Part shown: in pieces, positions 2,366 to 32,091 of the stretch
Layout: each line of letters opens with the position of its first letter
How positions within the stretch are numbered: the first letter of the stretch is position 1
Source of the DNA: a virus
Reading direction: 5' to 3' (one strand)
Length of the DNA stretch: 32,331 nt
UHGV virus genome: UHGV-0737708
The notes under the pieces: model-generated
Database searches by the model: none
Told to the model about the DNA's origin: nothing
Seen by the model: only the letters and a program-made list of their open reading frames with translations
Position numbers and translations under genes: made by a program

Positions 2366-2968
2366 TTATTTAGAGGACTTAGATTTTATCTTGAACATGG
2401 GTGAGTCGTCAACCGACATAAAGAACTCTGCCTTAATCCCGTACTTCTTCAACCGTGAATAATATGTACCCCGACTTATATCAACCTTGCGAAGCACTTC
2501 AAAGAAGGATTTAGGATCGTTGTAATAGTGGCTGTACTTCACGTTAGCGAGTTCAACGAATAGTTCCCTTGTATCACCATAGCCTTTCTTAAAAGCTATG
2601 TTACGATAGCGTGTAATAGCGTGATTCAATCTCTTCTGTTTCAACACTTCTCGGATCGGCTTCCACTGCAACCGATAGATAGGACCGTCATCAATGCGAT
2701 AATAACGCTTGATATCAAAATCAAACCAATCTCGGACTCTCCGAAACTCTGTATGTGATGTTCTATGCTTCTTAAAGAAGTTGTGAACGTCTGTATAGCC
2801 ATTATCACGGTAAAATTCTATTAAAATCTCTTTCGCTTCCTCACGGCTAAAACCGGATGTTGTGTAATCAGTCTTTAAGTGCTTATGTTTTACTGGCAAA
2901 CGATATTCATGATCGGTACAAGACAAGGCTAATTCTAATTCATCTCTTTGTTGCTGATTAATTAGCAT
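2366..2968 (-). CDS. Hypothetical protein (200 aa), basic, function unknown
   Basis: ATG at 2968 preceded by AAGGGGG ribosome-binding site; co-oriented with 2105..2335; no catalytic motif recognised. Confidence 0.55.
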
Positions 2969-3055
2969 ACAACCCCCTTAAATCTTAATACCCGTATTTA
3001 TCAAAAAATCAACAATTTAATAAATACCTTCATATTTCGTAATGAGGGTAATTAC

Positions 3056-4963
3056 ATGAAACTAATTTCTAATAAGGCCAAATTAAAAAAGATTCTCAAA
3101 AATGCAGCCAAATATATTACGCCACCGCCTAAACTACTTCCATCGGAATGGTGCGAAGCGAATATGGTGCTGGTAGATGGTCCTCAAGCTGGGGATAAAG
3201 TTAAATTGCTGTCATTCCAGAAAGGCATGATTGATGCTCCTTTCCTTGAGAATAAGAAAAAGTATGTTCTGATGACCAGTGCGCAGATCGGAAAGACTAC
3301 CATCCTGAACGGTATCCTGTTTAACCAGATGGCTAACGATCCATGCAATATGATTATCGGACAATCAACCGCTAAAGAAATGTCTCAATATCTCGCTGGT
3401 AAGATCCGACCGTCTATCGAAGCATGTGATGCATTAAAAGACGTGGTTACAGACAAGAATGATCGCAATTCTGTTAATAACAACAATCAGCTCCAGCTCA
3501 AATCAAACCACTTCCTTTATATGGTATCGCTTACTAGTCCATCAACCCTGCGCGGTAAGACTGCAAAGGTCGGACTACTAGACGAAATCGATGCTGCTAC
3601 AGCCTCAGAAGAAGGTGATCCGGTGGCACTGGCTGCTAACCGTTTAACTACCTTTGGTGATGAAGGCCGATTAGTCGTATCCAGCACCCCGACCAGTAAG
3701 CTCGGAAGCATTAACCAGCAATGGTTATCAAGCGATATGCGTATGTTTTTTGTTCCGTGTCCTCATTGCGGTAGACACCAGGTGATCGAGTGGGAAAACG
3801 TTCAATTTGAATGGCGTAACATCGATGGTAAGAACTTACCCGATCCTGATACCGCTCGTTATATTTGCCCCCACTGTAAGCAATCATGGACAGAAGGAGA
3901 GCGGATCAGGGCGGTAGCTGCTGGTGAATGGCGAGTAACGAGAGAAAGCGAGGTAGCAGGATTCTGGATCAGCCGTCTGTATTCACCTTTCAGCACGATC
4001 CGCGCTTGTGTGGTTGATTTTAGTCATGCGTGGCAATCCTTTGATTTACAATCATTTTATAACACAGTGTTAGGCAAGGTATACGACGATCAGGACACGG
4101 CAGTAGAAGCAAATGAACTGGAACAACTCAAAACAGATGTTTCTATCGAGAATATCCCTGATGACGTGATTTTCTTGTGCTCAGGAATTGACCAGCAATT
4201 GGACCGCGCAGAATCTACCATCTTAGGTGTAGCGAAAGATAAGGTTTACATTCTGGATCACCGCAGCTTTTACGATCATAACTGTGAACGATATGAATCA
4301 CCTGTATGGGATCGTCTGGTTAACTTCAAGAAAACCAAATTCTATAACGTTAATGGTGAACGTGTACCAATGCTCGCCAGCTTCCTTGATACATCGAACG
4401 GTCGATTCACTCAAGCCGGATACCGTATTTGCGGCAAGTGGAAGAACCTACACGCTATCAAAGGTAGTTCATCTGGTAATGCTCCAGTGATTCCGGTTAA
4501 ACCGACCCGCACAGGTGGTCATGAATTGCTTATGCTGGGTGTTAACGTTGGGAAATCCGCTGTTCGTGAAATGCTGGTTAGAAACCTGAAAGACAATCCT
4601 CACATCGGCTTAGAAATATCAGAAACCGTTCCTGATGATTATCTCGATCAGCTTTTGAGTGAATCCATCAAGCGTACTACTACTGGCGTGCGTTGGGTGA
4701 AAAATCCAGGTAGTACCCGAAACGAGGCTCTCGACTGTCTGGTTTATAGCTATGCTGCTTCTCGCTACGTTCTTTCAAAAATGTCATGGGATAAACTCAT
4801 TGCAATGAAAGACAGCTTAAACCGTGTTGTCGAAGAACCCGTAGAAGCTCCTAAATCGCAATCTGACGAGCAAATCGAAGAAACTAAGCCAATCACACGA
4901 CCGCAACGTAAAAACATCGCCAGACGCCCAAATAGAGGCCGTAGCTGGGTAACATCGTTCTAA
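3056..4963 (+). CDS. terL: Terminase large subunit, lambda GpA family (635 aa)
   Basis: Walker A-like SAQIGKT; paired zinc-ribbon cysteines CPHCGRH ... CPHCKQ; C-terminal [13 protein letters not shown] matching the lambda gpA nuclease region as recalled; followed by a portal gene. Confidence 0.88.
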
Positions 4964-5533: not shown

Positions 5534-5543
5534 GGGGTAAATC

Positions 5544-7055
5544 ATGTTTAATCTTTTTCGACGCAAAAAGGCGGTAGAAACTCCAGTTAAAACTAATCAC
5601 CGCCAGCAACAACAAAAAATCTTTATCGACAAACAAGTAGAAAAATTCCAGAAAGATTTGTCTAAGCGTTCTTTGGGCTTAGTCGGTGATCGAATTGATG
5701 GTGCACTTCAACAAGATACCATCACAGGAACCTTCAACAAGGCTCTCAAATCAAACGGTAAGCGCCTTTATGATCAGGGTCGTACTCTGGCTATAAACAA
5801 TGCTGTAGGTAAGCGATACAAGCAGTATATCGTTGACCAAGTTGTTGGTACGGGGCTTGATCCGAAGCCATCAATCGTTAAATCAAATGGCAAACTTGAC
5901 ACCGCACTGAATAAGCAGATCGAGAATGCTTTCTGGAAGTGGGCGCAGAGTGCTAAACGCTTCTCTCGCAACGGTCGCTTTAACTTCCGTGAAATGCTGG
6001 CAATGGCAGAATCTGAACGTGTTCAGGGTGGAGAATGCTTCATCGTTTTAACCAAAGAAAACAATGAGTTACAAGTTTCTATTCTGTCTGCTGATAGGTG
6101 CGACTGGTCGCTTAGTCGTGAAATAAGCAAAGACCGCGCGATCTATCAAGGGATTGAGTATGACGTAGACACAATGCGCCCTGTAGCATACTGGTTTAGA
6201 AAAATCAATCTACTGACTCAGACCTACACTGGCGAAAATTATCGCGTAGATGCTTCTCAGGTGTGCCACTACTACCAGCCACTGTGCGCGGAAAGTTTAC
6301 GTGGTGTGACTGACTTCCTGCCAGTGATTAAGGATATTGCGCATCAAGAAGCGTTCCGCGAAACCGCGATCATCCAGAAACGTATTGCAGCTAGCTCTAT
6401 GGGCTTTATTGAACGTCCGAAAGATTCTGGTGACGATTTTGATACTGGTGAAGAGGATGAACAATATCAAGCGCCGGAAGTAGTACAGGACTTTGCACCG
6501 GGTACTATTCAGGAATTGCCGGAAGGGGCAACGATCAAGAGCATCCAGGCGACGCAAAGCGGTGATGATTTCAATTCCTTCAATGATGCGATGTTTACTA
6601 GCGTATCAATGGGCTTAGGCGTGTTCAAACAGGGCTTAACAGGAGATTGTTCACAGATCAACTACTCAGCCGCACGTTTTGGGGAACTAACCCAGCGTAA
6701 CCGTGTTAAAGCACTGCAAAACAAATTAATTGAAACAGTGGTATTGCCAATTTTCGAAGCATATCTACGCCATTATTCCGCGCGTGGTATTGTTCCGATT
6801 CGTATTACTGCAATTCCGCATATTATCGATAATACAACTATTATTCGTCCGCGTTTTGAATCCGTCGATCCTATTAAAGACGTAAACGCCGAGATTGCTT
6901 TAATTCAAAATGGTCTTAAATCACGTACTGCCGTTATATTAGAACGTGGTGATGATCCTGAAAAAGTATTCTCAGAGATTCAAGCCGAAAAGAGCGCACT
7001 AAATATTATCGTTAATGGCGAGGGTGAAGAAAAAAATTCCCCAGCCGATCCCTAA
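5544..7055 (+). CDS. Portal protein (503 aa)
   Basis: Size and position directly between the large terminase and the prohead protease/capsid gene; acidic segment near the C-terminus; TAAGGGGTAAA ribosome-binding site. Confidence 0.72.
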   Translation: MFNLFRRKKAVETPVKTNHRQQQQKIFIDKQVEKFQKDLSKRSLGLVGDRIDGALQQDTITGTFNKALKSNGKRLYDQGRTLAINNAVGKRYKQYIVDQVVGTGLDPKPSIVKSNGKLDTALNKQIENAFWKWAQSAKRFSRNGRFNFREMLAMAESERVQGGECFIVLTKENNELQVSILSADRCDWSLSREISKDRAIYQGIEYDVDTMRPVAYWFRKINLLTQTYTGENYRVDASQVCHYYQPLCAESLRGVTDFLPVIKDIAHQEAFRETAIIQKRIAASSMGFIERPKDSGDDFDTGEEDEQYQAPEVVQDFAPGTIQELPEGATIKSIQATQSGDDFNSFNDAMFTSVSMGLGVFKQGLTGDCSQINYSAARFGELTQRNRVKALQNKLIETVVLPIFEAYLRHYSARGIVPIRITAIPHIIDNTTIIRPRFESVDPIKDVNAEIALIQNGLKSRTAVILERGDDPEKVFSEIQAEKSALNIIVNGEGEEKNSPADP

Positions 7056-19333: not shown

Positions 19334-19986
19334 TGGCAACTATTCAGGAATCATTCAGCAAACTATGCACTAATCTGGACTTCATCGAGGTCTACAACGA
19401 TCAGACAGGTCAGAACGTGTCTAGATTGACGCTACCGCAGCTTTTTTCCACTGGATCGATGTTTCACATTATCGAAGTGATAACAGCGTCAGGGGACGTT
19501 CTACGGCTTACAGATGGGTATTTCGATTTGGACTATAACGGATTTACGTATCTCGCAACGGGTGATTTTCTTCAAATCTCATCGAATACCGAAGAGAAGG
19601 AGATCAACAACAACGGGATCAACGTAACTGTTTCTAACGTTCGCGAAGAATACATTACCCTGATTCGTAACAAGCAATTCGATAAATCAGATGTGAAAAT
19701 CGAGATGGTTTTCCTTAACCCCAACACGGGCAAAGTTGAAACCACTTACCCTGTTTTCCGTGGGGTAGTCGATTCCATCGGGATTAACATCGAACATGAA
19801 GATGATGAGTGTAAAAACGAATCAGAATTTCAGCTTAATAGTATCTGGGAAGTTCTAGATAAAAACGCTCGTAGTCATGCCTCCGATGGTATCCACCGTT
19901 CCTATGTTGGAAACGAGAACGATCTATTCTTCTCCCGTGCCGGGAAGTGGAACTCAGAAAGCAAGTGGCATTCATCGAAGAAATAA
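19333..19986 (+). CDS. Minor tail protein (217 aa), gpL-like by position; start at ATG 19333 overlapping the upstream stop (TAATG)
   Basis: ATG at 19333 is translationally coupled to the upstream stop; the track ORF 19279 begins in the upstream gene. Confidence 0.5.
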   Translation: MATIQESFSKLCTNLDFIEVYNDQTGQNVSRLTLPQLFSTGSMFHIIEVITASGDVLRLTDGYFDLDYNGFTYLATGDFLQISSNTEEKEINNNGINVTVSNVREEYITLIRNKQFDKSDVKIEMVFLNPNTGKVETTYPVFRGVVDSIGINIEHEDDECKNESEFQLNSIWEVLDKNARSHASDGIHRSYVGNENDLFFSRAGKWNSESKWHSSKK

Positions 19987-20032
19987 TCCCTTCTCCCTAA
20001 GCCTAGTAAATAACAGCATGGAGGTATTCAAC

Positions 20033-20452
20033 ATGCTAAAAACTAGGCTTATCACCGATTACATCAATTCTTTAATAGGTCAGGAGTTCGTTCAAGGCGA
20101 GAATGATTGCAATCTAATTGCATGTAAGATCATCGATATTCTCGCTGGTACTGACCTATATAATTCTCTTTATAAAAAATATTCAACTAAAGAAGAAGGC
20201 TTGAAAATCTGCAAAGAATTAAGCGGGTATTCAAATATCCTTCAACCAATTAAGAAACATTTCAAATTAGTCACTGATGATTTACAGGACGGCGACTTAC
20301 TGGTCACAGCCCACAAATTAGGAAACCGTAATTATTATTCCGTAGTTCCTCATTATTCCGGTTATGGCCTCGTTGAAGAAGATGGTATCTGGATGACCAT
20401 TCCTGTTTCAGACATTGACTATGAACAAGTTTATAGATTCGGGGGTGAATAA
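20033..20452 (+). CDS. Tail assembly protein, gpK-like (140 aa) with NlpC/P60-type Cys motif (GENDCN)
   Basis: ATG at 20033 with GGAGG 8 nt upstream; its stop overlaps the start of the tip protein gene (TAATG). Confidence 0.5.
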   Translation: MLKTRLITDYINSLIGQEFVQGENDCNLIACKIIDILAGTDLYNSLYKKYSTKEEGLKICKELSGYSNILQPIKKHFKLVTDDLQDGDLLVTAHKLGNRNYYSVVPHYSGYGLVEEDGIWMTIPVSDIDYEQVYRFGGE

Positions 20453-23400
20453 TGGGATTTGAAATATTAGTAGGCGCGGTTATTGCTGGTGCGTCTGCTG
20501 GGATGGCTGCTGCTGCAACATTTTCTGTTATGACCGCAGTCGCTATCGGTATGGCTGCTGGTGCAATGACCTTGATCGCTTCCACTGTAGGCGCACCAAA
20601 AATACCTAAAGTACAAAGCCCAGATAATGCGGTGACACTAGGAACATCAAACGATCCGAAAGCGGTGATACCAGTCGTTTTCGGTACTACCCGCACTGGC
20701 ACAAACTGTGTTTACAAAGCAGTTTCTAAGCAAGAAAACAATAAGCTAGTGCAAATCTTCTCTGTAGCCGAGGGTGAAATCGACCATTACAAAGCACTCT
20801 TTATTGATAATAAAAATGTTCTTGTTGGTAAGAACATGACGATCCGTGATGGTATTCTCGATAAGGGCAACATTAAAGAAGAATATCGTAAAGTATTAGA
20901 AGTCGAGTTCCGCACGGGCAAGAATCCTAACACCGCTTTGTCGCTGGCAAAACGTCATTTAGGGTCAGACTGGAACGACAACTACAAAGGCAATGGTATT
21001 GCAACCATGTGTATTGTGTTGCGTCGCGATGACAAATCTCTTGCTGCTGGTGTTGATATTCTCCAGCCAAATAGCCAGGTAGCAGTAGACGTTTGCGGCC
21101 TTAAAATCCGTAACCTTGAAACCAATGCTATTGAGGCTAGCACTAACGGCGTGGATCAGATTTTCCACTACCTAACAAATGAAAAATATGGCTTATCCGT
21201 ACCAATTGAAAACATTAACGTTGATTCATTCCTGAAAGTACGTAAACAAGTACGCCAGATGGATCTACATTCAAACGGTGCATGTGATCCGAACGCCAGC
21301 TTTAAAGAGAACTTGACTAGCCTTATGCAGACTTTCGGCGGGGTGATGTTCGAATCCTTTGGACGTATTACGCTGAAACTGGATGCTCCTGATATTGTTA
21401 AGCATACCTTCAATGAAGACAATATCATGATGGGTAAGGTATCACTGAAAACAGGTGGCACTAACGGTTATTTCAATACCATTAACGCGATGTATCAAGA
21501 ACCATCAATTGACTATTCAGAGCAAATGCTACGTTATCCGGCTGATGCTGAAAACGATGCTACTGTTCGTCAAGATGGTCGAATTATTGCTAAGGATGTA
21601 GAATATCGTTTCGTTAAGTCTAAAGATCAGATTGATAAACTTGCGAGTATTGAACGAAATAAATCTCGTATCACTCAGGTTATCAGCTTTATGACTACTG
21701 ACGCATTCACTGCCGAAGTTTGGGACGTTATCAGCGTAACCTATGATGAATTGAAACTGAATAATTCACTTTGGCGTATTACTGCAATTGATCGCTCGAT
21801 TGATTCTGGTATTGCTGGGATGATGACTATCACCGCTACAGAATATAATTCTCAGGTTTATACTGACCTGAACTATGCGGCTAACCCAGATAACCGACCA
21901 AGTGGTTTACCGGATTCAATGACAGTACAGAAGCCTACTAATTTCAGAATTAAGGCAACTGGCGAGACGATTTACGGTAAAAATGTTACTTTGACATGGG
22001 ATGCACCGGAAGATTTTAACCGCTACGGCTTCCAGATTGATTACCGTGTAAGCGGATCACCTAACTGGATTAAGCTCGGTCAGACTTCACAGCAAATTTT
22101 CAGTGTCAATGCACTGGCTAAAGATCGCTCTTATGATTACCGAGTTTGTGCTTTCGGTATCATCGCTCGATCCGATTGGGTAGAACTGGTTAACCAGAAT
22201 CCGACTGTTACCTATGAATTGCCGACTCCGGTTATTCGAATCAAAAATCAGGGTAGCACGCCTGGTACTTTCGAAGGCAATGATCTGATTATCGAATGGG
22301 AAAATCAGCAACAATTAGATGTGATGATCAACGGTGAAGCTAACAAGTTTAGTGACCTGTTTGAAGCATACATTATCAAGGTGACTAACAAGGCTGGTAA
22401 GTCTATTCAGTACCGTACCCGCGATCCTGAATCATGGACTTATACGCTTGATATGAACCAGTTTAACGGCCTTTCGCGTCAACTGACGGTAGAAGTATCA
22501 GCTAAGGGCTATAACAACTCAGAGAGCGCCCCAGCGCGTTTAGTGGCTATCAACCCACAACATAAGCCAATGAAAGGTTTTAGTGCGCGTGGTGGCTTTA
22601 ATACTGCGTTTGTTAGCTGGGCGGATGACGTAGAACATGACTATGCAGGGTCAATCATCCAGTATGCAACCGACAACACTTTCTCAGATGCAAGGGCAGT
22701 AAGCACGAATAGTGTTAGCCATACTTCCTTTGATATTGCTGACGGTGATTATTATATCCGTGGTGCTCACTACGATATTTTCGGTATGGATGATGCTGTT
22801 TGGTCTGAACCGTATTTCATGCAAATGAAATCTACCATTAGCTGGGACGATCAGGACAAAGAAGCACTGGAAGACCTGATCGGTTTACAAGATCGATTAG
22901 ATGAAACTATCGCGGATGCTATTAAGCAAGCTGGCGCTAATGCCGATGCTAAAATTGATGCAATGCATAAGCAAATCACTACCGAAACAGGGCAGACGGT
23001 GCAAGCCTCAGCCAATACCTTAAAGAGTCTGATTGCTACCAGCGAGCAAGCTAGCTCCACTAAGATTGATCAGGTTAAAGCTGAACTGAAAGGCGATATC
23101 ACCAAAGAAGTTAGTGCATCTGCTACTACCCTGAAACAAGCAATTGCTACCAGTGAGGCAGCAAGCGCAAGCAAGATTGATCAAGTTCGGGTAGAAATGG
23201 ATGGCAAGATTGCTGGCGTGAATCAGGAAGCAGATGTAAAAATCGATGCTTTGAAGGGAACCATTAACAGCAAATATAATCTGGCGGTTAATGCAGATGG
23301 TCGCGTGGCTGGTATTCACATGAGCGCAACCAACGATCCGGCGCAACCGACGAGAATCATCTTTAATGCTGATAAAATCGCGGTAGCTCCACAGAACGGA

Positions 23401-24228
23401 TCGGAAGTATGCCCGTTTGGTATCGAAGGTAACAAGGTTTATCTCGATAATGCGATGATTCGTAATGCTGCAATTGGTACAGCCCAGATTAATGATGCGG
23501 CGATTACCACGGCTAAAATCGGCAATGCTGCAATTAACAGCGCGAAGATTCAGGACGGGGCAATCACTAACGCGAAGATCGTAAACGGTGCAATTGATAA
23601 CGCTAAAATCGGTAACTATATCCAGTCTTCCAACTGGAACGGATCGACCGGATGGCATATCAACAAGAACGGGTCCGCTACGTTCATGAATGCAACCGTT
23701 AAAGGTAATATCACTGCCGATTCTGGTACTCTGAACAACGTCACGATTAACTCTAGCTGTGTTATTAAGGGTATGCTTGAAGCTACTCAGGTTAAGGGTG
23801 ATTTCGTTAAGGTGATTGGACGTAAGTTCCCGCATCGTGATGTTAACGTTGATAATGGTTATGCTGGTTATCCACAGGGAACGGTCACTGTTCGCGTTGA
23901 AGATGATCACAAGTTCGATCGTCAAATCGTTATTCCGGCAATTAGTTTTGGTGGATTGCGAGCGCGTGAAGGGTCGAACAATAATACCTATTACGACACC
24001 TGTCGCCTGATTGTTCGTAAGAATGGGTCAGAGTTGTATAATAGGGCGTATGGCGGTAATACTGGTCTTTACTCAGGTGTTATTGATATGCCAGCGGGTA
24101 AAGGTGCTGTGACCTTGACCTTTGAAGTGCAATCAAGCGCAATCAACAACTGGACGCCTAGCACATGGATTAGTGATTTAACAGTAATGGTAACTAAAAA
24201 AGCCACTACTGGTATTACTGTTTCTTAA
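20452..24228 (+). CDS. Tail tip / central fibre host-specificity protein, lambda gpJ family (1258 aa)
   Basis: Position after K-like gene; fibronectin-III-like middle; C-terminal ~200 aa (GTLNNVTINSSC ... DDHKFDRQIVIP ... IDMPAGKGAVTLTF) resembles the lambda J receptor-binding C-terminus as recalled. Confidence 0.82.
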   Translation: MGFEILVGAVIAGASAGMAAAATFSVMTAVAIGMAAGAMTLIASTVGAPKIPKVQSPDNAVTLGTSNDPKAVIPVVFGTTRTGTNCVYKAVSKQENNKLVQIFSVAEGEIDHYKALFIDNKNVLVGKNMTIRDGILDKGNIKEEYRKVLEVEFRTGKNPNTALSLAKRHLGSDWNDNYKGNGIATMCIVLRRDDKSLAAGVDILQPNSQVAVDVCGLKIRNLETNAIEASTNGVDQIFHYLTNEKYGLSVPIENINVDSFLKVRKQVRQMDLHSNGACDPNASFKENLTSLMQTFGGVMFESFGRITLKLDAPDIVKHTFNEDNIMMGKVSLKTGGTNGYFNTINAMYQEPSIDYSEQMLRYPADAENDATVRQDGRIIAKDVEYRFVKSKDQIDKLASIERNKSRITQVISFMTTDAFTAEVWDVISVTYDELKLNNSLWRITAIDRSIDSGIAGMMTITATEYNSQVYTDLNYAANPDNRPSGLPDSMTVQKPTNFRIKATGETIYGKNVTLTWDAPEDFNRYGFQIDYRVSGSPNWIKLGQTSQQIFSVNALAKDRSYDYRVCAFGIIARSDWVELVNQNPTVTYELPTPVIRIKNQGSTPGTFEGNDLIIEWENQQQLDVMINGEANKFSDLFEAYIIKVTNKAGKSIQYRTRDPESWTYTLDMNQFNGLSRQLTVEVSAKGYNNSESAPARLVAINPQHKPMKGFSARGGFNTAFVSWADDVEHDYAGSIIQYATDNTFSDARAVSTNSVSHTSFDIADGDYYIRGAHYDIFGMDDAVWSEPYFMQMKSTISWDDQDKEALEDLIGLQDRLDETIADAIKQAGANADAKIDAMHKQITTETGQTVQASANTLKSLIATSEQASSTKIDQVKAELKGDITKEVSASATTLKQAIATSEAASASKIDQVRVEMDGKIAGVNQEADVKIDALKGTINSKYNLAVNADGRVAGIHMSATNDPAQPTRIIFNADKIAVAPQNGSEVCPFGIEGNKVYLDNAMIRNAAIGTAQINDAAITTAKIGNAAINSAKIQDGAITNAKIVNGAIDNAKIGNYIQSSNWNGSTGWHINKNGSATFMNATVKGNITADSGTLNNVTINSSCVIKGMLEATQVKGDFVKVIGRKFPHRDVNVDNGYAGYPQGTVTVRVEDDHKFDRQIVIPAISFGGLRAREGSNNNTYYDTCRLIVRKNGSELYNRAYGGNTGLYSGVIDMPAGKGAVTLTFEVQSSAINNWTPSTWISDLTVMVTKKATTGITVS

Positions 24229-25872: not shown

Positions 25873-25881
25873 GGGGGTAAT

Positions 25882-26235
25882 ATGTTAAGTAAGCATTTTT
25901 CTCGCAAGGAATTTAAATGTAAATGCGGAAAATGTGATTATGATACAATCGACGCTGAATTACTGGTAATTCTTGAGGATGTACGAGAGCACTTCGGTAA
26001 ACCAGTGATTATTAACAGTGGCAACCGTTGCCCGACTCATAACAAGAATGTAGGCGGTGCAACCAACAGCTATCACGTTCGAGGCCGTGCGGCTGACATT
26101 GTGATCAAGGGTGTCTCCCCTGATATTGTCCATGCTTATCTTGATGGGAAATATCCTACTCAATACGGCTTAGGCAAATATAAAACCTTTACGCATATCG
26201 ATTCCAGATCGAAAAAATCACGATGGAATGGATAA
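25882..26235 (+). CDS. Endolysin, peptidase M15 family (L-alanyl-D-glutamate endopeptidase type), 117 aa
   Basis: Zinc-binding signature SGNRCPTHN ... SYHVRGRAADI ... H characteristic of small M15 phage endolysins; TAAGGGGGTAAT ribosome-binding site; strong terminator follows. Confidence 0.8.
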   Translation: MLSKHFSRKEFKCKCGKCDYDTIDAELLVILEDVREHFGKPVIINSGNRCPTHNKNVGGATNSYHVRGRAADIVIKGVSPDIVHAYLDGKYPTQYGLGKYKTFTHIDSRSKKSRWNG

Positions 26236-26240
26236 AATTA

Positions 26241-26267
26241 AAGCGCCTCTAGTGGGCGCTTTTTTTG
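26241..26267. terminator. Bidirectional terminator between the convergent endolysin and helicase genes
   Basis: AAAGCGCC-TCTAGT-GGGCGCTTT with TTTTTTT on the plus strand and an A/T run on the other side. Confidence 0.7.
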
Positions 26268-27758
26268 TTATATAGCAATTGTTTTAGTTGCATAGCTGAA
26301 CTTGTCGGTCAAATAATAGCGGATTCTCTCAAGTGCATGTTTTACCGCATAATTTTTATGCTTGACTTTTCCGTTACGACCGAATATACACAGATGATCT
26401 ATAAGATCCCAGACCGTTGCAATATCCTTAGAACCATGTTTACGCAACGCACGACCGATACTCTGACGAACGATAGTTGATTCCTTCACTGGATGACCGA
26501 AAATAACATGATGCAAGTTCTTGATGGAAACACCAGTAGAGAACACACCATAAGACGCAACACAGATGAAGCCAGTGTCACCTTCCGCCATTTTCTTAAA
26601 TTCATCACGTTCTTCTGTCTTAACTCCACCATCAATATAATAAACCTTGTCGTGTACCTTCTGTAACGCATCATACATAAGTTTTCCGTGCTTAGTATTG
26701 CGGAACATCAGGAATACGTTTTCGCCCTTCTTAGCGAGTTTTAGCGCCAAATTGCAAGCAAACTTATTACGTCGTGGGTTAGATGTAATATACTTGATCT
26801 CTTCCGCATATTCTCTCCCCTTAACCGCGCTACATTCCTCATCGGTATAACGAAGGAAAAGACAGTTAATTTTCAGTTTCGTAACTTGACCTTCTTCCAT
26901 CAGGCGGTCAATACTCACGATCTTAGAAATATCACCGAAAAGCCCGACATACTGCATTAAATGGCACTTTGATTCTTTCGGGGAACCAGTCATACCAATT
27001 TTAAACTGGCAATGATTCATTCCGTTAATGATATTGGTAATATTTTTGGCACTAGCCTTATGTGATTCATCAACTATCAACATTCCATATTGTTTGAACC
27101 ATTCAGGAGGCATCTTGCAAGCTGATTGCCAGGTACTAACCGTGATTAACCTGTCTCCCGGATGTTTCCCGCTACCACTCATCATTGTATGAATTGCTTC
27201 ATAAGGGAATAGCCTATAATCGATGAAATCATCCCTCAGTTGAACCACTAGCGATGTAGTCGGAACAATGATTAGAACTTTTCCGGTGTAATGCTCTAAG
27301 TACCAACGAGACAGCATACAAGCAATCAATGACTTACCCGCACTGGTAGGAAGAACCAGCATTCTACGGCGATTATGGATACCCTGAAAGACTGCCTCCC
27401 TTTGATACCAATAAGGATTGATTTTATTGCTACCGGAATACACTTCTAAGGAATCAATCCATTCATTAATCGCGTCTTTGGTTACATCTTCCTTCTCAAG
27501 CAATCTGGGGTCAATCCAGACTGAATACCCCATATTTTTAACAAAGACACCCAACGTTTTTAATAGTCCAATTGGTAGGGTGTTTTCATGCGTAAACAGT
27601 CTTATTCGTCCATCCCAGCCAGAATACTTGTAACGGGGGCTAAACCTAGCCCCTTCAACCTCAAACGAGAAATAATCTCTTAATTCCATTCCGATAGAAG
27701 GAGAGCAATCAACCTTAACGAAACTGTAATCTTGAAAATGAATTTTAATATCTTGCAT
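26268..27758 (-). CDS. uvsW: SF2 DExH-box helicase resembling T4 UvsW (about 496 aa from ATG at 27758; the track start at 27767 is a GTG)
   Basis: Motif I LPTSAGKS, motif II DESH, C-terminal helicase motifs; N-terminal region resembles the UvsW DNA-binding domain as recalled; start ATG overlaps the upstream gene's stop. Confidence 0.78.
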   Translation of the reverse strand: MQDIKIHFQDYSFVKVDCSPSIGMELRDYFSFEVEGARFSPRYKYSGWDGRIRLFTHENTLPIGLLKTLGVFVKNMGYSVWIDPRLLEKEDVTKDAINEWIDSLEVYSGSNKINPYWYQREAVFQGIHNRRRMLVLPTSAGKSLIACMLSRWYLEHYTGKVLIIVPTTSLVVQLRDDFIDYRLFPYEAIHTMMSGSGKHPGDRLITVSTWQSACKMPPEWFKQYGMLIVDESHKASAKNITNIINGMNHCQFKIGMTGSPKESKCHLMQYVGLFGDISKIVSIDRLMEEGQVTKLKINCLFLRYTDEECSAVKGREYAEEIKYITSNPRRNKFACNLALKLAKKGENVFLMFRNTKHGKLMYDALQKVHDKVYYIDGGVKTEERDEFKKMAEGDTGFICVASYGVFSTGVSIKNLHHVIFGHPVKESTIVRQSIGRALRKHGSKDIATVWDLIDHLCIFGRNGKVKHKNYAVKHALERIRYYLTDKFSYATKTIAI

Positions 27759-28327
27759 TAGTTCCACTCCACACTTGCAATATTCTTTATATTGTTTAGT
27801 GATTTATTGCAGTAGTGGAATGTTTCAGTTTTGCCGTATTCAATCCCGCCTATACCCACATCCAGTAATCTCTTTATTGCTCTTTCAGTGGCTAAAGCAT
27901 GTTTCATTGATGGCATTTCACCAGCAAAGACAATATCAAAGTTATGACCGGGATTGCGTACACCCAGATTAATGCGTCGCTTGATGATTGACTTTGTTAC
28001 ACCAAATTTACCAATATCCCCTGATTTCATTACATAGAGATAAGGCACACCCGCTTTATATTGAAAGTAATCACTTTTGAGACATGCACAGCGTTTACCT
28101 TCATTAAGCAGGTTGGTAGCTGATTTGTCGGCTCTATTGCCGCATCGGGTACATGTAAGAGCAATTCTTGAATGAAGCCCTTTAAACTCACCCAGAAAGC
28201 CATGAAAGACTAACGGTAAGTCCTTCTCTTTGATGTGAGTCAGAATGCGTTGTTCTAATGCCGATGGAGTTACAGCACGGGAGGATTTAGGAGTAAAAAC
28301 AATATCTTTAGCCATCACTGGAATCAT
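27758..28327 (-). CDS. Zinc-ribbon plus GIY-YIG-like (T5orf172-type) domain protein (189 aa)
   Basis: CTRCGNR ... CAC cysteine cluster; YLYVMKSGDIGKFGVTK ... RR ... ATERAIKRLL resembles the T5orf172 / GIY-YIG-like pattern; GTGAGGT ribosome-binding site. Confidence 0.6.
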   Translation of the reverse strand: MIPVMAKDIVFTPKSSRAVTPSALEQRILTHIKEKDLPLVFHGFLGEFKGLHSRIALTCTRCGNRADKSATNLLNEGKRCACLKSDYFQYKAGVPYLYVMKSGDIGKFGVTKSIIKRRINLGVRNPGHNFDIVFAGEMPSMKHALATERAIKRLLDVGIGGIEYGKTETFHYCNKSLNNIKNIASVEWN

Positions 28328-28480
28328 ATAGACCTCACTTTTTAACTTATAGGCATAACCTCAATATGGTTGGTTTGGGATTTAGGGTCGCGTATTATAC
28401 ACATTCAGATAGAGAATGCAATAGTAAGACAATTTTCTCTAATAAATAGTAGTGAGCTTATTATTTTAGAGGAAACTACT

Positions 28481-29656
28481 ATGAAACTTGCTTACGCTGC
28501 CGAAATTCCTTTTGTTAAGAAAACTCGCGGTTTATCGCCGGAAGAGTACCAACAACGAATCATCGCTAAACTGGAACCTGCTTTCGTATTTGGTGGATTT
28601 ATCCTACCGTGGAAGGGTAATCACACTTACTTTCGAATCTACAATTTAGACACACAAGAATATAAGGACTACAAATTACGCAAACTGGAAGATACTAACG
28701 GGGGTGAGTTATTCCAGACTGAAAAGGCTGTATGGTTGAAAATGGAATCTCGTTGTAATGAGAAGGGAAAGAAATTCCTCGGATGGCAAGGAGAATGGAA
28801 AGGGCGAAATAGAACGAAAGCCCGTGTTTTGTGCCCTGAACACAATCAAATCATGACGCCATCTCTATTACATGCTCTCAAAGATGATTTCGATTTTGAT
28901 TGCAAAATCTGTATGGCTGAAAAATCCCAACGGGTAAGAAGTGGCAAGACTTTTGATGAAGTTATTAAGGACAAAGAGACAATCATCAATGCACGTTGCG
29001 AGAGTACGCCTTACACCTTCAAAGGATTCATCATAAACACCCCACACCTAAAGGATGTTAAATTTAAAACTCATTGCAAGACACATAACCACGAATGGGA
29101 ATCTCATTTAAGATGTGCTGATTCTTTCACTTGTCCGCTTTGCATTAAAGACCAACTGGTGCAACTGTCTAGCCGGACTTATCAGGGTAAGGCTAGTTTC
29201 TACATTCAATTATTAGATGACAAATTTATTAAATTTGGAATCACTACCCGGAAACCAGAAGAACGAATGAGAGAGCAAACCAGAAAGAGCAACTTCACTC
29301 ACCGCTTAATCTTTACTCATGAGTTTGAGGATGGTTGGAAAGCCGTTGATTTAGAGCATGAAGTAAAACAACGCTTCAAGACTCATGCAGCACCCTACAA
29401 AGATTTCAAGGATGGATGGTCGGAAACTCTGACTATTGATGAGTTGCCACACTTACAGCAACTGGTTTATGACTACCTAACCAATCAACCGGACGAGGCT
29501 AATATGTGGGTATCCCCGAAAGATGTATTTGATGACGATACATTCAAGCTACATACTCACTTCTACGGCATCAATAAACCGGAATTTTTCTGTATTGATG
29601 ACGACAGTCCTGATTTAATGGATGAATACTTTAATGCTCTCTTAGACGCTGCCTAA
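28481..29656 (+). CDS. Zinc-ribbon plus C-terminal GIY-YIG-like (T5orf172-type) domain protein (about 391 aa from ATG at 28481; the track start 28370 is not an ATG)
   Basis: AGAGGA ribosome-binding site before ATG 28481; Cys pairs CPEHN ... CKIC and CKTHNHEW ... CPLC; FYIQLLDDKFIKFGITTRKPEERMREQ ... LEHEVKQRF matches the same domain pattern as the 189-aa protein. Confidence 0.6.
   Translation: MKLAYAAEIPFVKKTRGLSPEEYQQRIIAKLEPAFVFGGFILPWKGNHTYFRIYNLDTQEYKDYKLRKLEDTNGGELFQTEKAVWLKMESRCNEKGKKFLGWQGEWKGRNRTKARVLCPEHNQIMTPSLLHALKDDFDFDCKICMAEKSQRVRSGKTFDEVIKDKETIINARCESTPYTFKGFIINTPHLKDVKFKTHCKTHNHEWESHLRCADSFTCPLCIKDQLVQLSSRTYQGKASFYIQLLDDKFIKFGITTRKPEERMREQTRKSNFTHRLIFTHEFEDGWKAVDLEHEVKQRFKTHAAPYKDFKDGWSETLTIDELPHLQQLVYDYLTNQPDEANMWVSPKDVFDDDTFKLHTHFYGINKPEFFCIDDDSPDLMDEYFNALLDAA
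28671..28724 (+). repeat. 54-nt segment inside the 28481..29656 gene, exactly repeated at 32278..32331
   Basis: Base-by-base comparison: ACAAATTACGCAAACTGGAAGATACTAACGGGGGTGAGTTATTCCAGACTGAAA at both places. Confidence 0.9.
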
Positions 29657-29729: not shown

Positions 29730-31409
29730 TTAAATTCCAAATTCCTGTAATGGACCTGGTATTTCTTCCACTGGTTTCCAGTTCTTATCTGTCAGCATGT
29801 CTAAACATGGATGCAGAACAAGCCCGTTGCTCTCCAGAATCTGCCTATCATTGATAGTCTTCAAATCGACAAATATTTGTCCTTTCCTCGTTCCTCTTGA
29901 ATTTTCTATTACAACTCTCTGGGTCTTTCCATCGATGTATTCCAGTACAAACAAGTTTTTGTTTCTGTCAATCCTGCTACACCCGATCCGCTTTAGAGCT
30001 TGCTTAATCTTAAACCGGACCTTTAGTCGTTCCTCGTTGTAAACATCTTCTAAATCAAATTCTGCGAGCTTCTCCCAGCCTTGAGAGTCAACAGAATACA
30101 TTTCCTCTTCTGCCATCTTGATCTGATTGTAGAGTGTTTCACGCTCGCTATTGAGGGTAGTAATCTGATCGGCTAGCTCCTTCGTTGCTCCTGTCATAGC
30201 AGAAAGGGCAATCAGGTTATCAATCTTGCGTGATATTTCATCAACCTGTACTTTCAACGCCGGAACCGGATTAGCCTTGTCCTCAGCAATCCAGATTTTA
30301 TCAGCCAGCAATTGCAATACAGCTTTCTCTAATTGATCACCTCGAAAACTCCAGTTTGGATGCTCGCAATCAAGTCTACGTGAACGGGTCGCATCACATG
30401 TATAACGATACTGGTCAGAACGTTTGTTCGTTCCCTTCACTTTAACCATAGCGCAACCGCAATGATCACATTTCAATAGGCCAATACCACTAAGCAGGGG
30501 GATCGGTTTAACTTCTTCCTTGTCTCCAAAGTTCCATGCTCTAGCACCAATATTTTTCTTAAGGTGATAGAACGTAGGGTCATCAATAACACGAGGGTAA
30601 TAATCCTTTAACTCATAGTTAACGCCATCTACAGAGACCTCCTTGATACCAATCAAAGCGCGGGTATGAAACAACCTTTCAACCATTGCCCGTGACCATT
30701 TTGAATGCTTCTTGTTGCTAACCGCTGGTGGCGGTGTATAAGTCTCGTTAAGGTGATCCAGTATTTCGGCGGTTGAACGTCCATTCTTCCGTAATTCCAC
30801 AATCTCCTGAACAACAGGGAAGTACACCGGATGAGGCAGCACATAACCGGAAGTGGTATCCGTCCACCACATATTCTTTCCAACTTCCTCGATTGCCACT
30901 GCCGGATTCTGGGGATTTTCTTGATGGGCTTTAATCTTAATCAGTGCGCTTGAGTTAGTACGATTGCGCTTAGTCTGGCTTTCCTCATTACCACGGATGA
31001 ATAAAAGGATGGAGAACATCAGGTCCATCGGATTAGCGGTAACAGTATCCAGCGAGTAGATCTTGTTATCCATGCCAGTAACAATGGTTATTCCCCTACG
31101 GATGATTGAAAGGAATAACTCCTGCGCACTGACAATATCGGCACGGGATAAACGGTCCAAGTTTTCGATGAATAGCCAGCTACCAACAGGAACGGATCTA
31201 CCTATTGCATCAAGGAAACGAGATAGCGCCCCTGTTTTGGAGTTAGCACCTTTAAACGCAGATACACCCAGATCCTGATAATCATTTACCAGTTCTAAGT
31301 CATACTTTGCCGCAATCTCTCTCGCCATCCTGATTTGTCGTTCATAACTCGAACCATCACTCTGACGCATAGACGAGAAGCGAATATACGAATACAGTTT
31401 AGTTTTCAT
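29730..31409 (-). CDS. Large serine recombinase (about 559 aa from ATG at 31409; the track start 31424 is a TTG)
   Basis: N-terminal resolvase-type catalytic domain (YSYIRFSSMRQSDGSSYERQ with the R-x-S nucleophile context, ENLDRLSR); central recombinase domain; Cys cluster CDHCGC ... C ... C; C-terminal coiled coil. Confidence 0.8.
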   Translation of the reverse strand: MKTKLYSYIRFSSMRQSDGSSYERQIRMAREIAAKYDLELVNDYQDLGVSAFKGANSKTGALSRFLDAIGRSVPVGSWLFIENLDRLSRADIVSAQELFLSIIRRGITIVTGMDNKIYSLDTVTANPMDLMFSILLFIRGNEESQTKRNRTNSSALIKIKAHQENPQNPAVAIEEVGKNMWWTDTTSGYVLPHPVYFPVVQEIVELRKNGRSTAEILDHLNETYTPPPAVSNKKHSKWSRAMVERLFHTRALIGIKEVSVDGVNYELKDYYPRVIDDPTFYHLKKNIGARAWNFGDKEEVKPIPLLSGIGLLKCDHCGCAMVKVKGTNKRSDQYRYTCDATRSRRLDCEHPNWSFRGDQLEKAVLQLLADKIWIAEDKANPVPALKVQVDEISRKIDNLIALSAMTGATKELADQITTLNSERETLYNQIKMAEEEMYSVDSQGWEKLAEFDLEDVYNEERLKVRFKIKQALKRIGCSRIDRNKNLFVLEYIDGKTQRVVIENSRGTRKGQIFVDLKTINDRQILESNGLVLHPCLDMLTDKNWKPVEEIPGPLQEFGI

Positions 31410-31430
31410 ACCATTTCCAAACAAAAACGC

Positions 31431-31474: not shown

Positions 31475-31720
31475 TTAATATTTCTTTCCAGTTAGTTTTG
31501 CATCACGTTTATTAATATCCTCGATATGACTCCATACACACGCAGTAATAAAGTCGTCATCGTCACCAACTCCGGCAACCTGTGCTAATTCAGTACACAG
31601 TTGATTTAAAGAAGGTGCAACGGCAGCACGCTTGACACTATCACCCTGTACATATTGTTCGGCATTTGCAGCACCAACCAAACCCAGAGCAAGAACGATA
31701 CCAGCGATAATCTTTTTCAT
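31475..31720 (-). CDS. Small secreted protein with cleavable signal peptide (81 aa; predicted cleavage after ANA)
   Basis: MKKIIAGIVLALGLVGAANA-EQ signal peptide; AGAGGA ribosome-binding site. Confidence 0.5.
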   Translation of the reverse strand: MKKIIAGIVLALGLVGAANAEQYVQGDSVKRAAVAPSLNQLCTELAQVAGVGDDDDFITACVWSHIEDINKRDAKLTGKKY

Positions 31721-31749: not shown

Positions 31750-32091
31750 TTAGTCTTTGAAGTCGATGGTCACGTTACCTTTAAGGGCAAGTTCCATTAA
31801 ACAACTGCGCTCATCCTTCATGCTCTTACACAATTTCATCCCGTAAACAACGAGATTATCTTTCTCTTTCCAATATTTTTGTTTATCTGCATAAACCTCG
31901 CTATATTCACTGTCTTTGAGTGAGAGAGCATTTTCTAACTGGCTAATCTCCTGATTCAGATCCTTAATCTCGGCCTTATTTGACCGGATAGTCTCTTGAT
32001 GTTGAGTATCGGAATAGTCATACCCACAAACAAATCCACCGATGCCACCAACACACACAGAAACAATAATTGCGTAGATAGTCTTTTTCAT
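31750..32091 (-). CDS. Small membrane-anchored protein with periplasmic coiled coil (113 aa)
   Basis: MKKTIYAIIVSVCVGGIGGFVCG hydrophobic N-terminus; AGAGGA ribosome-binding site nearly identical to that of the downstream gene. Confidence 0.5.
   Translation of the reverse strand: MKKTIYAIIVSVCVGGIGGFVCGYDYSDTQHQETIRSNKAEIKDLNQEISQLENALSLKDSEYSEVYADKQKYWKEKDNLVVYGMKLCKSMKDERSCLMELALKGNVTIDFKD

Follow-up and report, generated by a model that had tools for sequence, protein, structure and literature searches.

A T-even uvsW gene and an adjoining homing-endonuclease-type gene in a temperate enterobacterial prophage

The gene pair and its locus

The virus genome UHGV-0737708, analyzed here over its whole stretch of 32,331 nucleotides (nt), which we refer to as the window, is that of a temperate siphophage with terminase, portal, head, tail, tape-measure and tip genes. 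Its minus strand carries a gene for a 496-amino-acid (aa) superfamily 2 (SF2) helicase, a uvsW ortholog, directly preceded by a gene for a 189-aa protein of homing-endonuclease type, and the two genes share a TAATG stop/start (Table 1). An earlier note on this DNA, made by a model from the letters alone, had read this overlap as the sign of a partnership and "not a free-standing homing endonuclease". The overlap itself is read directly from the sequence: CATTA on the plus strand is TAATG on the minus strand, with the stop TAA of the 189-aa open reading frame (ORF) at 27760-27758 and the helicase ATG at 27758-27756, so that the genes overlap by 1 nt. The ORF listing stretches the helicase up to a GTG at 27767, but all helicase homologs, RB49 UvsW included, begin with MQDIK, and the PGAP annotation of a 98%-identical Escherichia coli genome has the same 1-nt overlap; the ATG at 27758 is therefore the real start. 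The pair converges on the M15 endolysin gene of the plus strand, as the earlier note had it, and sits in a variable segment between endolysin and integrase, which agrees with its description there as an accessory module.

The TAATG overlap is real but unremarkable. Most neighboring structural genes of the window are spaced 1-10 nt apart, and a second gene pair (19877-20452 and 20452-24228) has the identical 1-nt TAATG overlap. The helicase gene also has a Shine-Dalgarno sequence of its own, a GGAG 8 nt before its ATG, and in the Salmonella copies the nuclease and uvsW genes lie 9-12 nt apart and do not overlap. Because the window is so tightly packed, uvsW has its own GGAG and the Salmonella copies lack the overlap, little can be read into it. 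The Salmonella junctions follow instead the style of a recurrent intercistronic motif, TAAGGGG(T/G)(A/T)A then ATG, which stands ahead of many late genes in the window (for example at 5534-5546, 9999-10010 and 25873-25884). The T4-late-promoter-like TATAAAGA, 30 nt before the uvsW ATG, was considered as a signal and rejected, as it is the coding sequence of a conserved NNIKN motif and is lost in the Salmonella copies; RB49 has a true TATAAATA at the corresponding position.

Table 1. Features of the uvsW locus and its surroundings in the window
Feature	Position	Strand	Basis or remark
uvsW ortholog, 496-aa SF2 helicase, T-even phage origin	26268-27758	-	ATG 27758, stop 26268-26270; profiles, structure match, nucleotide identity
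189-aa homing-endonuclease-type gene	27758-28327	-	N-terminal CapR-type Cys4 zinc ribbon and C-terminal T5orf172/GIY-YIG-fold nuclease domain
TAATG stop/start overlap of nuclease gene and uvsW	27756-27760	-	Sequence; PGAP annotation
Last 35 codons of nuclease gene	27758-27865	-	Carry the uvsW GGAG; 98-100% conserved in E. coli alleles that are otherwise 44% identical; sole part left in deletion variants
Recombination patch in uvsW, 94-100% identical to RB49-type Krischvirus uvsW	26390-26960	-	Sliding-window identity; BLAST boundary at 26391
Bidirectional intrinsic-terminator hairpin	26240-26262	both	Between convergent endolysin and uvsW genes; terminator-like site on each strand
Conserved divergent intergenic region	28328-28474	both	92-95% conserved where flanking nuclease genes are replaced or deleted
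M15 peptidase endolysin, last gene of rightward late operon	25882-26235	+	Left boundary of accessory region; Peptidase_M15_3 1e-27, phrog_894 endolysin
393-aa CapR and T5orf172/MUG113 nuclease-type gene	28475-29656	+	Hypervariable slot beside integrase; CapR 1.3e-10, MUG113 3.9e-6, phrog_681 2e-43
Large serine recombinase (integrase), prophage end abutting ycdX	29730-31424	-	Bounds accessory region; Pfam Recombinase and Zn_ribbon_recom; phrog_95 integrase 2e-63

A uvsW ortholog of T-even origin

The helicase matches the Pfam families UvsW_N (PF21241, 2.1e-34), ResIII (1.3e-19) and Helicase_C (5e-11), and aligns over its full length with the T4 UvsW structure (PDB 2OCA; residues 3-494 against 2-500, E = 2.7e-182). 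In this alignment, motifs I, II and VI (PTSAGKS, VDESH and QSIGRALR) pair with their T4 counterparts. By BLAST, its nucleotide identity to uvsW of the Krischviruses, T4-type phages resembling RB49, is 80-86% overall. The synteny of T-even uvsW with its neighbor uvsY is kept in related prophages, as a uvsY fragment collinear with uvsW in L002 and as a complete uvsY beside uvsW in L015 and L022-25. On these matches the helicase is a true uvsW ortholog, as the earlier note had suggested, with the UvsW N-terminal domain, two RecA-like SF2 domains and their motifs, and the orthology and synteny expected of the family. A full-length tblastn match was found once in all 21 copies, and the eight prophage alleles that were translated have no internal stop. 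The ratio of nonsynonymous to synonymous substitution rates (dN/dS) is 0.03-0.2, and 0.028 for the window against L003, although these low values may partly have been imported with gene-conversion patches from phages. The prophage UvsW is probably an active branch-migration helicase that is kept for recombination-dependent repair or replication.

The gene is a mosaic. Nucleotide identity to phage RB49 reaches 98-100% over the ~570 nt of the recombination patch, while the 5′ ~800 nt represent a divergent prophage allele (82-97% identical to L015, 57-77% to RB49) and the final ~125 nt match neither RB49 nor the prophage allele. Krischvirus uvsW is mosaic too: between RB49 and G5211, identity is 57-81% over the 5′ 1000 nt and rises to 95-99% over the 3′ 500 nt. 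Further T-even sequence remains in the sister prophages, where two tandem fragments of the 5′ part of the baseplate gene 27 (98% and 78% identical to phage Whisky) lie between uvsY and the endolysin gene (L022, 8573-9121; L023 is similar). The base composition, ~40% GC (guanine plus cytosine) across the region, gives no island signature. The best-supported account of the sequence comparisons is that the pair lies within a captured and trimmed T-even segment that still recombines with Krischviruses.

We also considered the 96% match of 26391-26877 to Krischvirus vB_EcoM_G37-3 (L006) as a prophage patch that disrupts the phage uvsW, and set this aside: G37-3 is ~97% RB49-like throughout and has an internal tandem duplication. 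The duplication (~195 nt, not a multiple of 3) lies within the G37-3 uvsW at 2866-4479, probably a pseudogene, whose annotation reads just "similar to helicase".

A CapR/T5orf172-type nuclease gene

The 189-aa protein begins with a CapR domain (Pfam PF21817), which scores 25.2 bits against a cut-off of 24.2 and is matched by all 12 family members, with invariant cysteines at C59, C62, C80 and C82. The CapR domain is a sequence-specific DNA-binding module of homing endonucleases, and DNA binding by CapR requires the four cysteines (PMC8096241). Taken alone, the window protein falls short of the T5orf172 threshold (13.6 bits, cut-off 20, E = 0.1). As a family, 11 of the 12 members match T5orf172 (best 1.9e-5) and six match GIY-YIG (best 2.7e-4), and the PHROG family phrog_681, "endonuclease", matches the 189-aa protein at 6e-19. 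Among phages, the proteins closest to it (25-28% identity) are putative homing endonucleases from T5-like phages. The protein conforms to the GIY-YIG alpha/beta fold, and residues Y96, Y98, K107, G109, R117 and E148, along with TETF167-170, are invariant in alleles down to 42% identity. These correspond to the active-site set of the GIY-YIG type, with catalytic roles that we assign by analogy. The zinc-ribbon and GIY-YIG/T5orf172 character put forward in the earlier note is thus supported, for GIY-YIG/T5orf172 through the family as a whole. The gene is intact in every copy examined, with a dN/dS of 0.07-0.36. Weak similarity between the 189-aa and the 393-aa protein (E = 1e-4, on an N-terminal motif) raised the question of paralogy, which was set aside as the similarity is only weak.

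The slot beside uvsW

In T4, a gap of 2 nt separates segE from uvsW, which follows it on the same strand. The segE product has been proven to be a free-standing homing endonuclease: its insertion site is between inh (hoc.1) and uvsW, and it homes into RB30 with an efficiency near 100%, co-converting the sequences on either side (PMC2988022, PMC2330249). The segE gene also contains promoters for the gene that follows it (PMC2988022). In Krischvirus G5211, a SegE homolog lies 4 nt upstream of uvsW, and such a homolog was found in only four Krischvirus records. The site is empty in RB49 and filled in T4, the four Krischviruses and the window, as expected of an intergenic insertion by a homing endonuclease, and the flank is mosaic, with uvsW a patchwork and the nuclease gene swapped as a cassette. 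Tight juxtaposition of a nuclease gene and uvsW is the standard look of a free-standing homing endonuclease gene. Because segE and the SegE homolog abut uvsW in the same manner, the juxtaposition in the window is no evidence against a homing endonuclease, and the contrary conclusion of the earlier note is not borne out: the slot is the documented SegE site, and nuclease and helicase alleles reassort. Sequence comparison found no SegE homology in the 189-aa protein. Phages Whisky and JK32 have a 361-aa CapR/T5orf172 gene between uvsW and uvsW.1 (L026 and L027, 3501-4586), so that uvsW has a further endonuclease site on its opposite side.

Distribution, allele exchange and loss

The prophage arm is present in 58 of 5426 complete E. 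coli genomes, and uvsW in 17 of these 58. Among the 17, 13 have the pair and four have uvsW and, of the nuclease gene, just the final 105 nt; the nuclease gene was found without uvsW in none of the 58. An intact helicase gene after deletion of the nuclease gene also occurs in four of 11 IMG/VR loci. In the deletion variant L003, the segments corresponding to 27866-28399 and 28505-29645 are removed, so that both nuclease genes of the arm are gone and the helicase is intact; the nuclease gene is likewise deleted in L016-19 and in four complete E. coli genomes. The helicase thus persists intact without the nuclease gene.

Where the nuclease gene is present, its alleles are exchanged. The nuclease proteins of the window and L015 are 44% identical, between flanks that are 95-100% identical, one of them the intergenic region, the other the final 35 codons together with the start of uvsW. 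L002 and L015 have the helicase in common (93-100% nucleotide identity per 100-nt segment) and differ in their nuclease alleles. Between allele classes the DNA-binding part is the most diverged, at 28-32% identity versus 41-48% for the nuclease domain. Judged from these alignments, the nuclease gene is exchanged like a cassette, with its flanks conserved.

These patterns bear on the model of the earlier note, in which the pair is a co-expressed nuclease-helicase machine that acts on branched DNA and serves replication or recombination of the temperate phage. The genes are adjacent in every context examined, in E. coli and Salmonella and with alleles down to 41-51% identity; they would share a transcription unit, overlap by TAATG in the E. 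coli copies and are both under purifying selection. It also speaks for the earlier note that every 189-aa family member whose context was examined adjoins uvsW. The earlier note had itself named helicase homologs without the partner gene as evidence against its model, and this is the state of most T-even uvsW genes, whose products function without such a partner, as in RB49. In addition, the helicase is intact and conserved in the deletion variants (four of 17 E. coli genomes, four of 11 IMG/VR loci), the reassortment of alleles argues against co-adaptation, and CapR is a sequence-specific module of homing endonucleases and does not recognize junctions (PMC8096241). We consider a dedicated machine quite improbable because of the deletion variants, the allele reassortment and an overlap that is not conserved.

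It is also conceivable that the pair is a functionless relic, a scrap of T-even DNA brought in by illegitimate recombination and decaying in the prophage. Sister prophages do show stepwise trimming, with a truncated uvsY, gene-27 fragments and deletion of both nuclease genes, and an IS1 element lies near one copy. Against decay, all 21 helicase copies are full-length with no internal stop in the translated alleles, the helicase motifs are intact, dN/dS is low for both genes, and the genes have been retained at synonymous saturation in prophages of both E. coli and Salmonella. With ORFs intact and dN/dS low, a dead relic is very hard to credit.

Interpretation of the pair

We favor, with a probability of roughly 60%, the reading that the pair consists of a T-even uvsW and a free-standing homing-endonuclease-type gene of the T5orf172 family, placed in the classical slot 5′ of uvsW and now found in a temperate prophage. 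On the best reading, the pair looks like a mobile nuclease together with its target and not like a dedicated two-protein machine. One promoter in the divergent intergenic region would drive both genes, and uvsW would be translated from its own Shine-Dalgarno sequence inside the end of the nuclease gene. With such an embedded signal in use, the TAATG overlap would reflect the tight packing of an inserted endonuclease gene, as in T4 segE-uvsW. When a Krischvirus-like phage and the temperate phage replicate in one cell, genomes that lack the endonuclease gene would be cut by the nuclease at the 5′ end of uvsW or close to it, and the break would be repaired by homologous recombination, with the uvsW copy as homology arm. 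Repair through this arm would yield the mosaic uvsW alleles seen on both sides, and UvsW would not need the nuclease as a partner.

Several observations weigh against this interpretation. The 189-aa family (16 protein clusters) was found nowhere but in prophages of the ycdX family, and there always at this one locus. No sequenced T-even phage has a copy, and IMG/VR and the metagenome scan yielded none beyond these prophages, so the same gene has not been seen in different genome backgrounds, as would be expected of a homing endonuclease. The viral-contig profile scan and the metagenome scan returned the same prophage loci only, and neither the 189-aa family nor the helicase was detected in bacterial contigs sampled at one genome per species. 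This confinement to one prophage family gives no sign that the 189-aa gene moves between genomes or sites. The T-even homology also lies on the uvsW side only, and because no inh sequence is present upstream, two-sided homing into a Krischvirus is not obviously possible. At 189 aa with a single CapR domain, the protein is about half the size of a typical T5orf172 endonuclease. Lastly, purifying selection and invariant catalytic-type residues without visible homing suit a domesticated gene no less than an active selfish one.

Such a domesticated function could be interference with other phages. T4 UvsW unwinds R-loops at replication origins. It has to be weighed whether the pair is an anti-phage module in which the nuclease damages or represses superinfecting Krischvirus genomes at the uvsW locus, perhaps through binding alone, in analogy to the CapR protein of PLE, and in which UvsW made early from the prophage could upset the replication of T-even phages, perhaps by acting on the R-loops of their origins. 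Lysogens would gain protection from such a module, or the temperate phage an advantage in mixed infections. The location between lysis genes and integrase is typical of prophage accessory or defense cargo, and the 189-aa family occurs in prophages only. Neither gene is disrupted in any copy, dN/dS is low for both, and the catalytic-type and zinc-binding residues are invariant. The DNA-binding part diverges most, as expected under changing target specificity, and with phage homology on one side only, the phage might not survive a cut. As a precedent, a CapR protein that derives from T5orf172 is turned against a lytic phage (PMC8096241). On the other side, PADLOC models match neither the 189-aa nor the 393-aa protein, and the helicase matches only generic SF2 models (PbeA, 1e-11, partial). 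The cassette is absent from 41 of the 58 related prophages, some lineages lost the nuclease gene yet keep uvsW, and the low dN/dS may in part have come in with the phage gene-conversion patches. We regard an anti-phage module as unlikely, though it is the alternative that we would take most seriously.

A bolder version, which we also think unlikely, sees in the cassette a weapon of the prophage against lytic Krischviruses: the homing-type nuclease would cut or block the uvsW locus, and the one-sided homology would abort the phage genome or drag prophage DNA into it. Prophage UvsW may also interfere with the replication program of the invader. The 98-100% RB49-like patches would then be the footprint of homing-endonuclease-based interference across the divide between temperate and virulent phages.

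Prophage context and neighboring features

The prophage is integrated in ycdX of E. coli by its large serine recombinase, and a truncated ycdX adjoins the integrase gene in E. coli genomes; the Salmonella copies adjoin ycdY/ycdZ homologs. Next to the integrase gene, a slot is always occupied by a CapR/T5orf172-type gene: the 393-aa gene in the window and its counterparts in L002 (6712-7725), L004 (4704-5702) and L015 (1526-2776). These alleles are mutually 26-30% identical between conserved flanks, and the slot is occupied even in prophages that lack uvsW. The best phage homolog of the 393-aa protein is the 361-aa gene product of Whisky/JK32 (29% identity, E = 9e-42). Beyond the integrase gene, L002 has a further 348-aa gene at 9506-10552 on the minus strand, with three CapR repeats and T5orf172 (CapR 1e-28). 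CapR/T5orf172-type genes accumulate at several sites in this prophage family.

No other non-coding stretch of the accessory arm is as conserved as the divergent intergenic region between the 189-aa and 393-aa genes, which may hold back-to-back promoters with overlapping -10 elements. Inspection by eye suggests a putative sigma-70 promoter on the minus strand (TTGCAT at 28421-28416, 16 nt, TATAAT at 28399-28394) and another on the plus strand (TTGGTT at 28370-28375, 17 nt, TATTAT at 28393-28398). A promoter scan did not list these two in 28328-28474, because their -35 elements match at just 3 of 6 positions. In the deletion variant L003, the minus-strand -10 element has been swapped for TATAGG through microhomology (GATGTG..GTATA).

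Elsewhere in the window, a 1177-aa T4 gp37-like distal subunit of the long tail fiber is encoded at 10919-14452 on the plus strand (phrog_1699, 3e-135). This gene has 73-79% nucleotide identity to Krischvirus gene 37, is a second region in common with that lytic genus, and is flanked by two major-tail-protein-like genes (10008-10841 and 14509-14982). Two small ORFs lie on the minus strand between the integrase gene and the attachment site. The first (31475-31720) has a signal-peptide-like N-terminus, and the second (31750-32091) has weak PADLOC matches (E about 5e-4) to N-terminal regions tied to reverse-transcriptase defense systems.

Significance

The components of the pair, namely UvsW, a T5orf172 endonuclease and a segE-type slot, are of known kinds. 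Literature searches turned up no account of uvsW or uvsY in prophages, of these genes together with endonuclease-type genes in a temperate prophage, or of this pair. Free-standing homing endonucleases and marker exclusion are understood mainly through crosses of lytic T-even phages, and here the same kind of locus lies in a temperate E. coli/Salmonella prophage and in patches reaches as much as 100% identity to a present-day lytic phage. The locus is a concrete case in which the flow of recombination genes between virulent and temperate phages can be tested, and in which nuclease genes mark the boundaries of exchange. If the nuclease is active against Krischvirus genomes, the locus would be a simple natural example of a prophage competing with a lytic phage by means of a homing-type nuclease. 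If it is inactive, the locus would be an ordinary mosaic, in which the genes had been identified correctly and the stop/start overlap over-read.

Comparison with known systems

The closest counterpart of the helicase is T4 UvsW (PDB 2OCA, 1RIF), to which it is similar in its full-length alignment, in the UvsW N-terminal domain and SF2 motifs, and in the uvsY synteny of the sister prophages. Unlike T4 UvsW, it is encoded in a temperate siphophage, where its gene has an accessory place next to the integrase gene, and it comes with neither a uvsW.1 gene nor a uvsW.1 extension.

The pair as a whole is most readily compared with T4 segE-uvsW. In both, uvsW is preceded on its own strand by a small GIY-YIG-superfamily nuclease gene that comes right up to it, with a 2-nt spacer in T4 and a 1-nt overlap here, and this endonuclease gene contains signals for the gene that follows (PMC2988022). 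Both also show presence/absence polymorphism among related genomes and a mosaic uvsW flank. The nucleases themselves differ, since the 189-aa protein has no sequence similarity to SegE and is a T5orf172 protein with an N-terminal CapR zinc ribbon, whereas SegE has the classical Seg architecture; the prophage pair also lies in a temperate genome where the upstream inh flank is absent. The Whisky/JK32 gene is likewise a CapR/T5orf172 gene that abuts uvsW, but it lies downstream of uvsW, has no detectable BLASTP similarity to the 189-aa protein, and finds its window relative in the 393-aa gene.

For domain architecture, the comparison is with vibriophage ICP1 and the PLE satellite, whose CapR protein derives from the T5orf172 homing endonucleases of ICP1 (PMC8096241, PMC10448857). 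Similarity of the ICP1 and PLE proteins to the 189-aa protein is remote and at the profile level only, and the 189-aa gene belongs to an enterobacterial temperate phage and not to a satellite. PLE CapR is the DNA-binding domain alone, while the 189-aa protein retains its nuclease domain, and for the latter the analysis gave no evidence of a part in repression or defense. Like the ICP1 endonucleases, the 189-aa protein has a Cys4 CapR domain followed by a T5orf172 nuclease domain (PMC8096241), and its gene stands at a border of genetic exchange between phages (PMC10448857). As with PLE CapR, a chromosomally integrated element bears a relative of a lytic phage's endonuclease.

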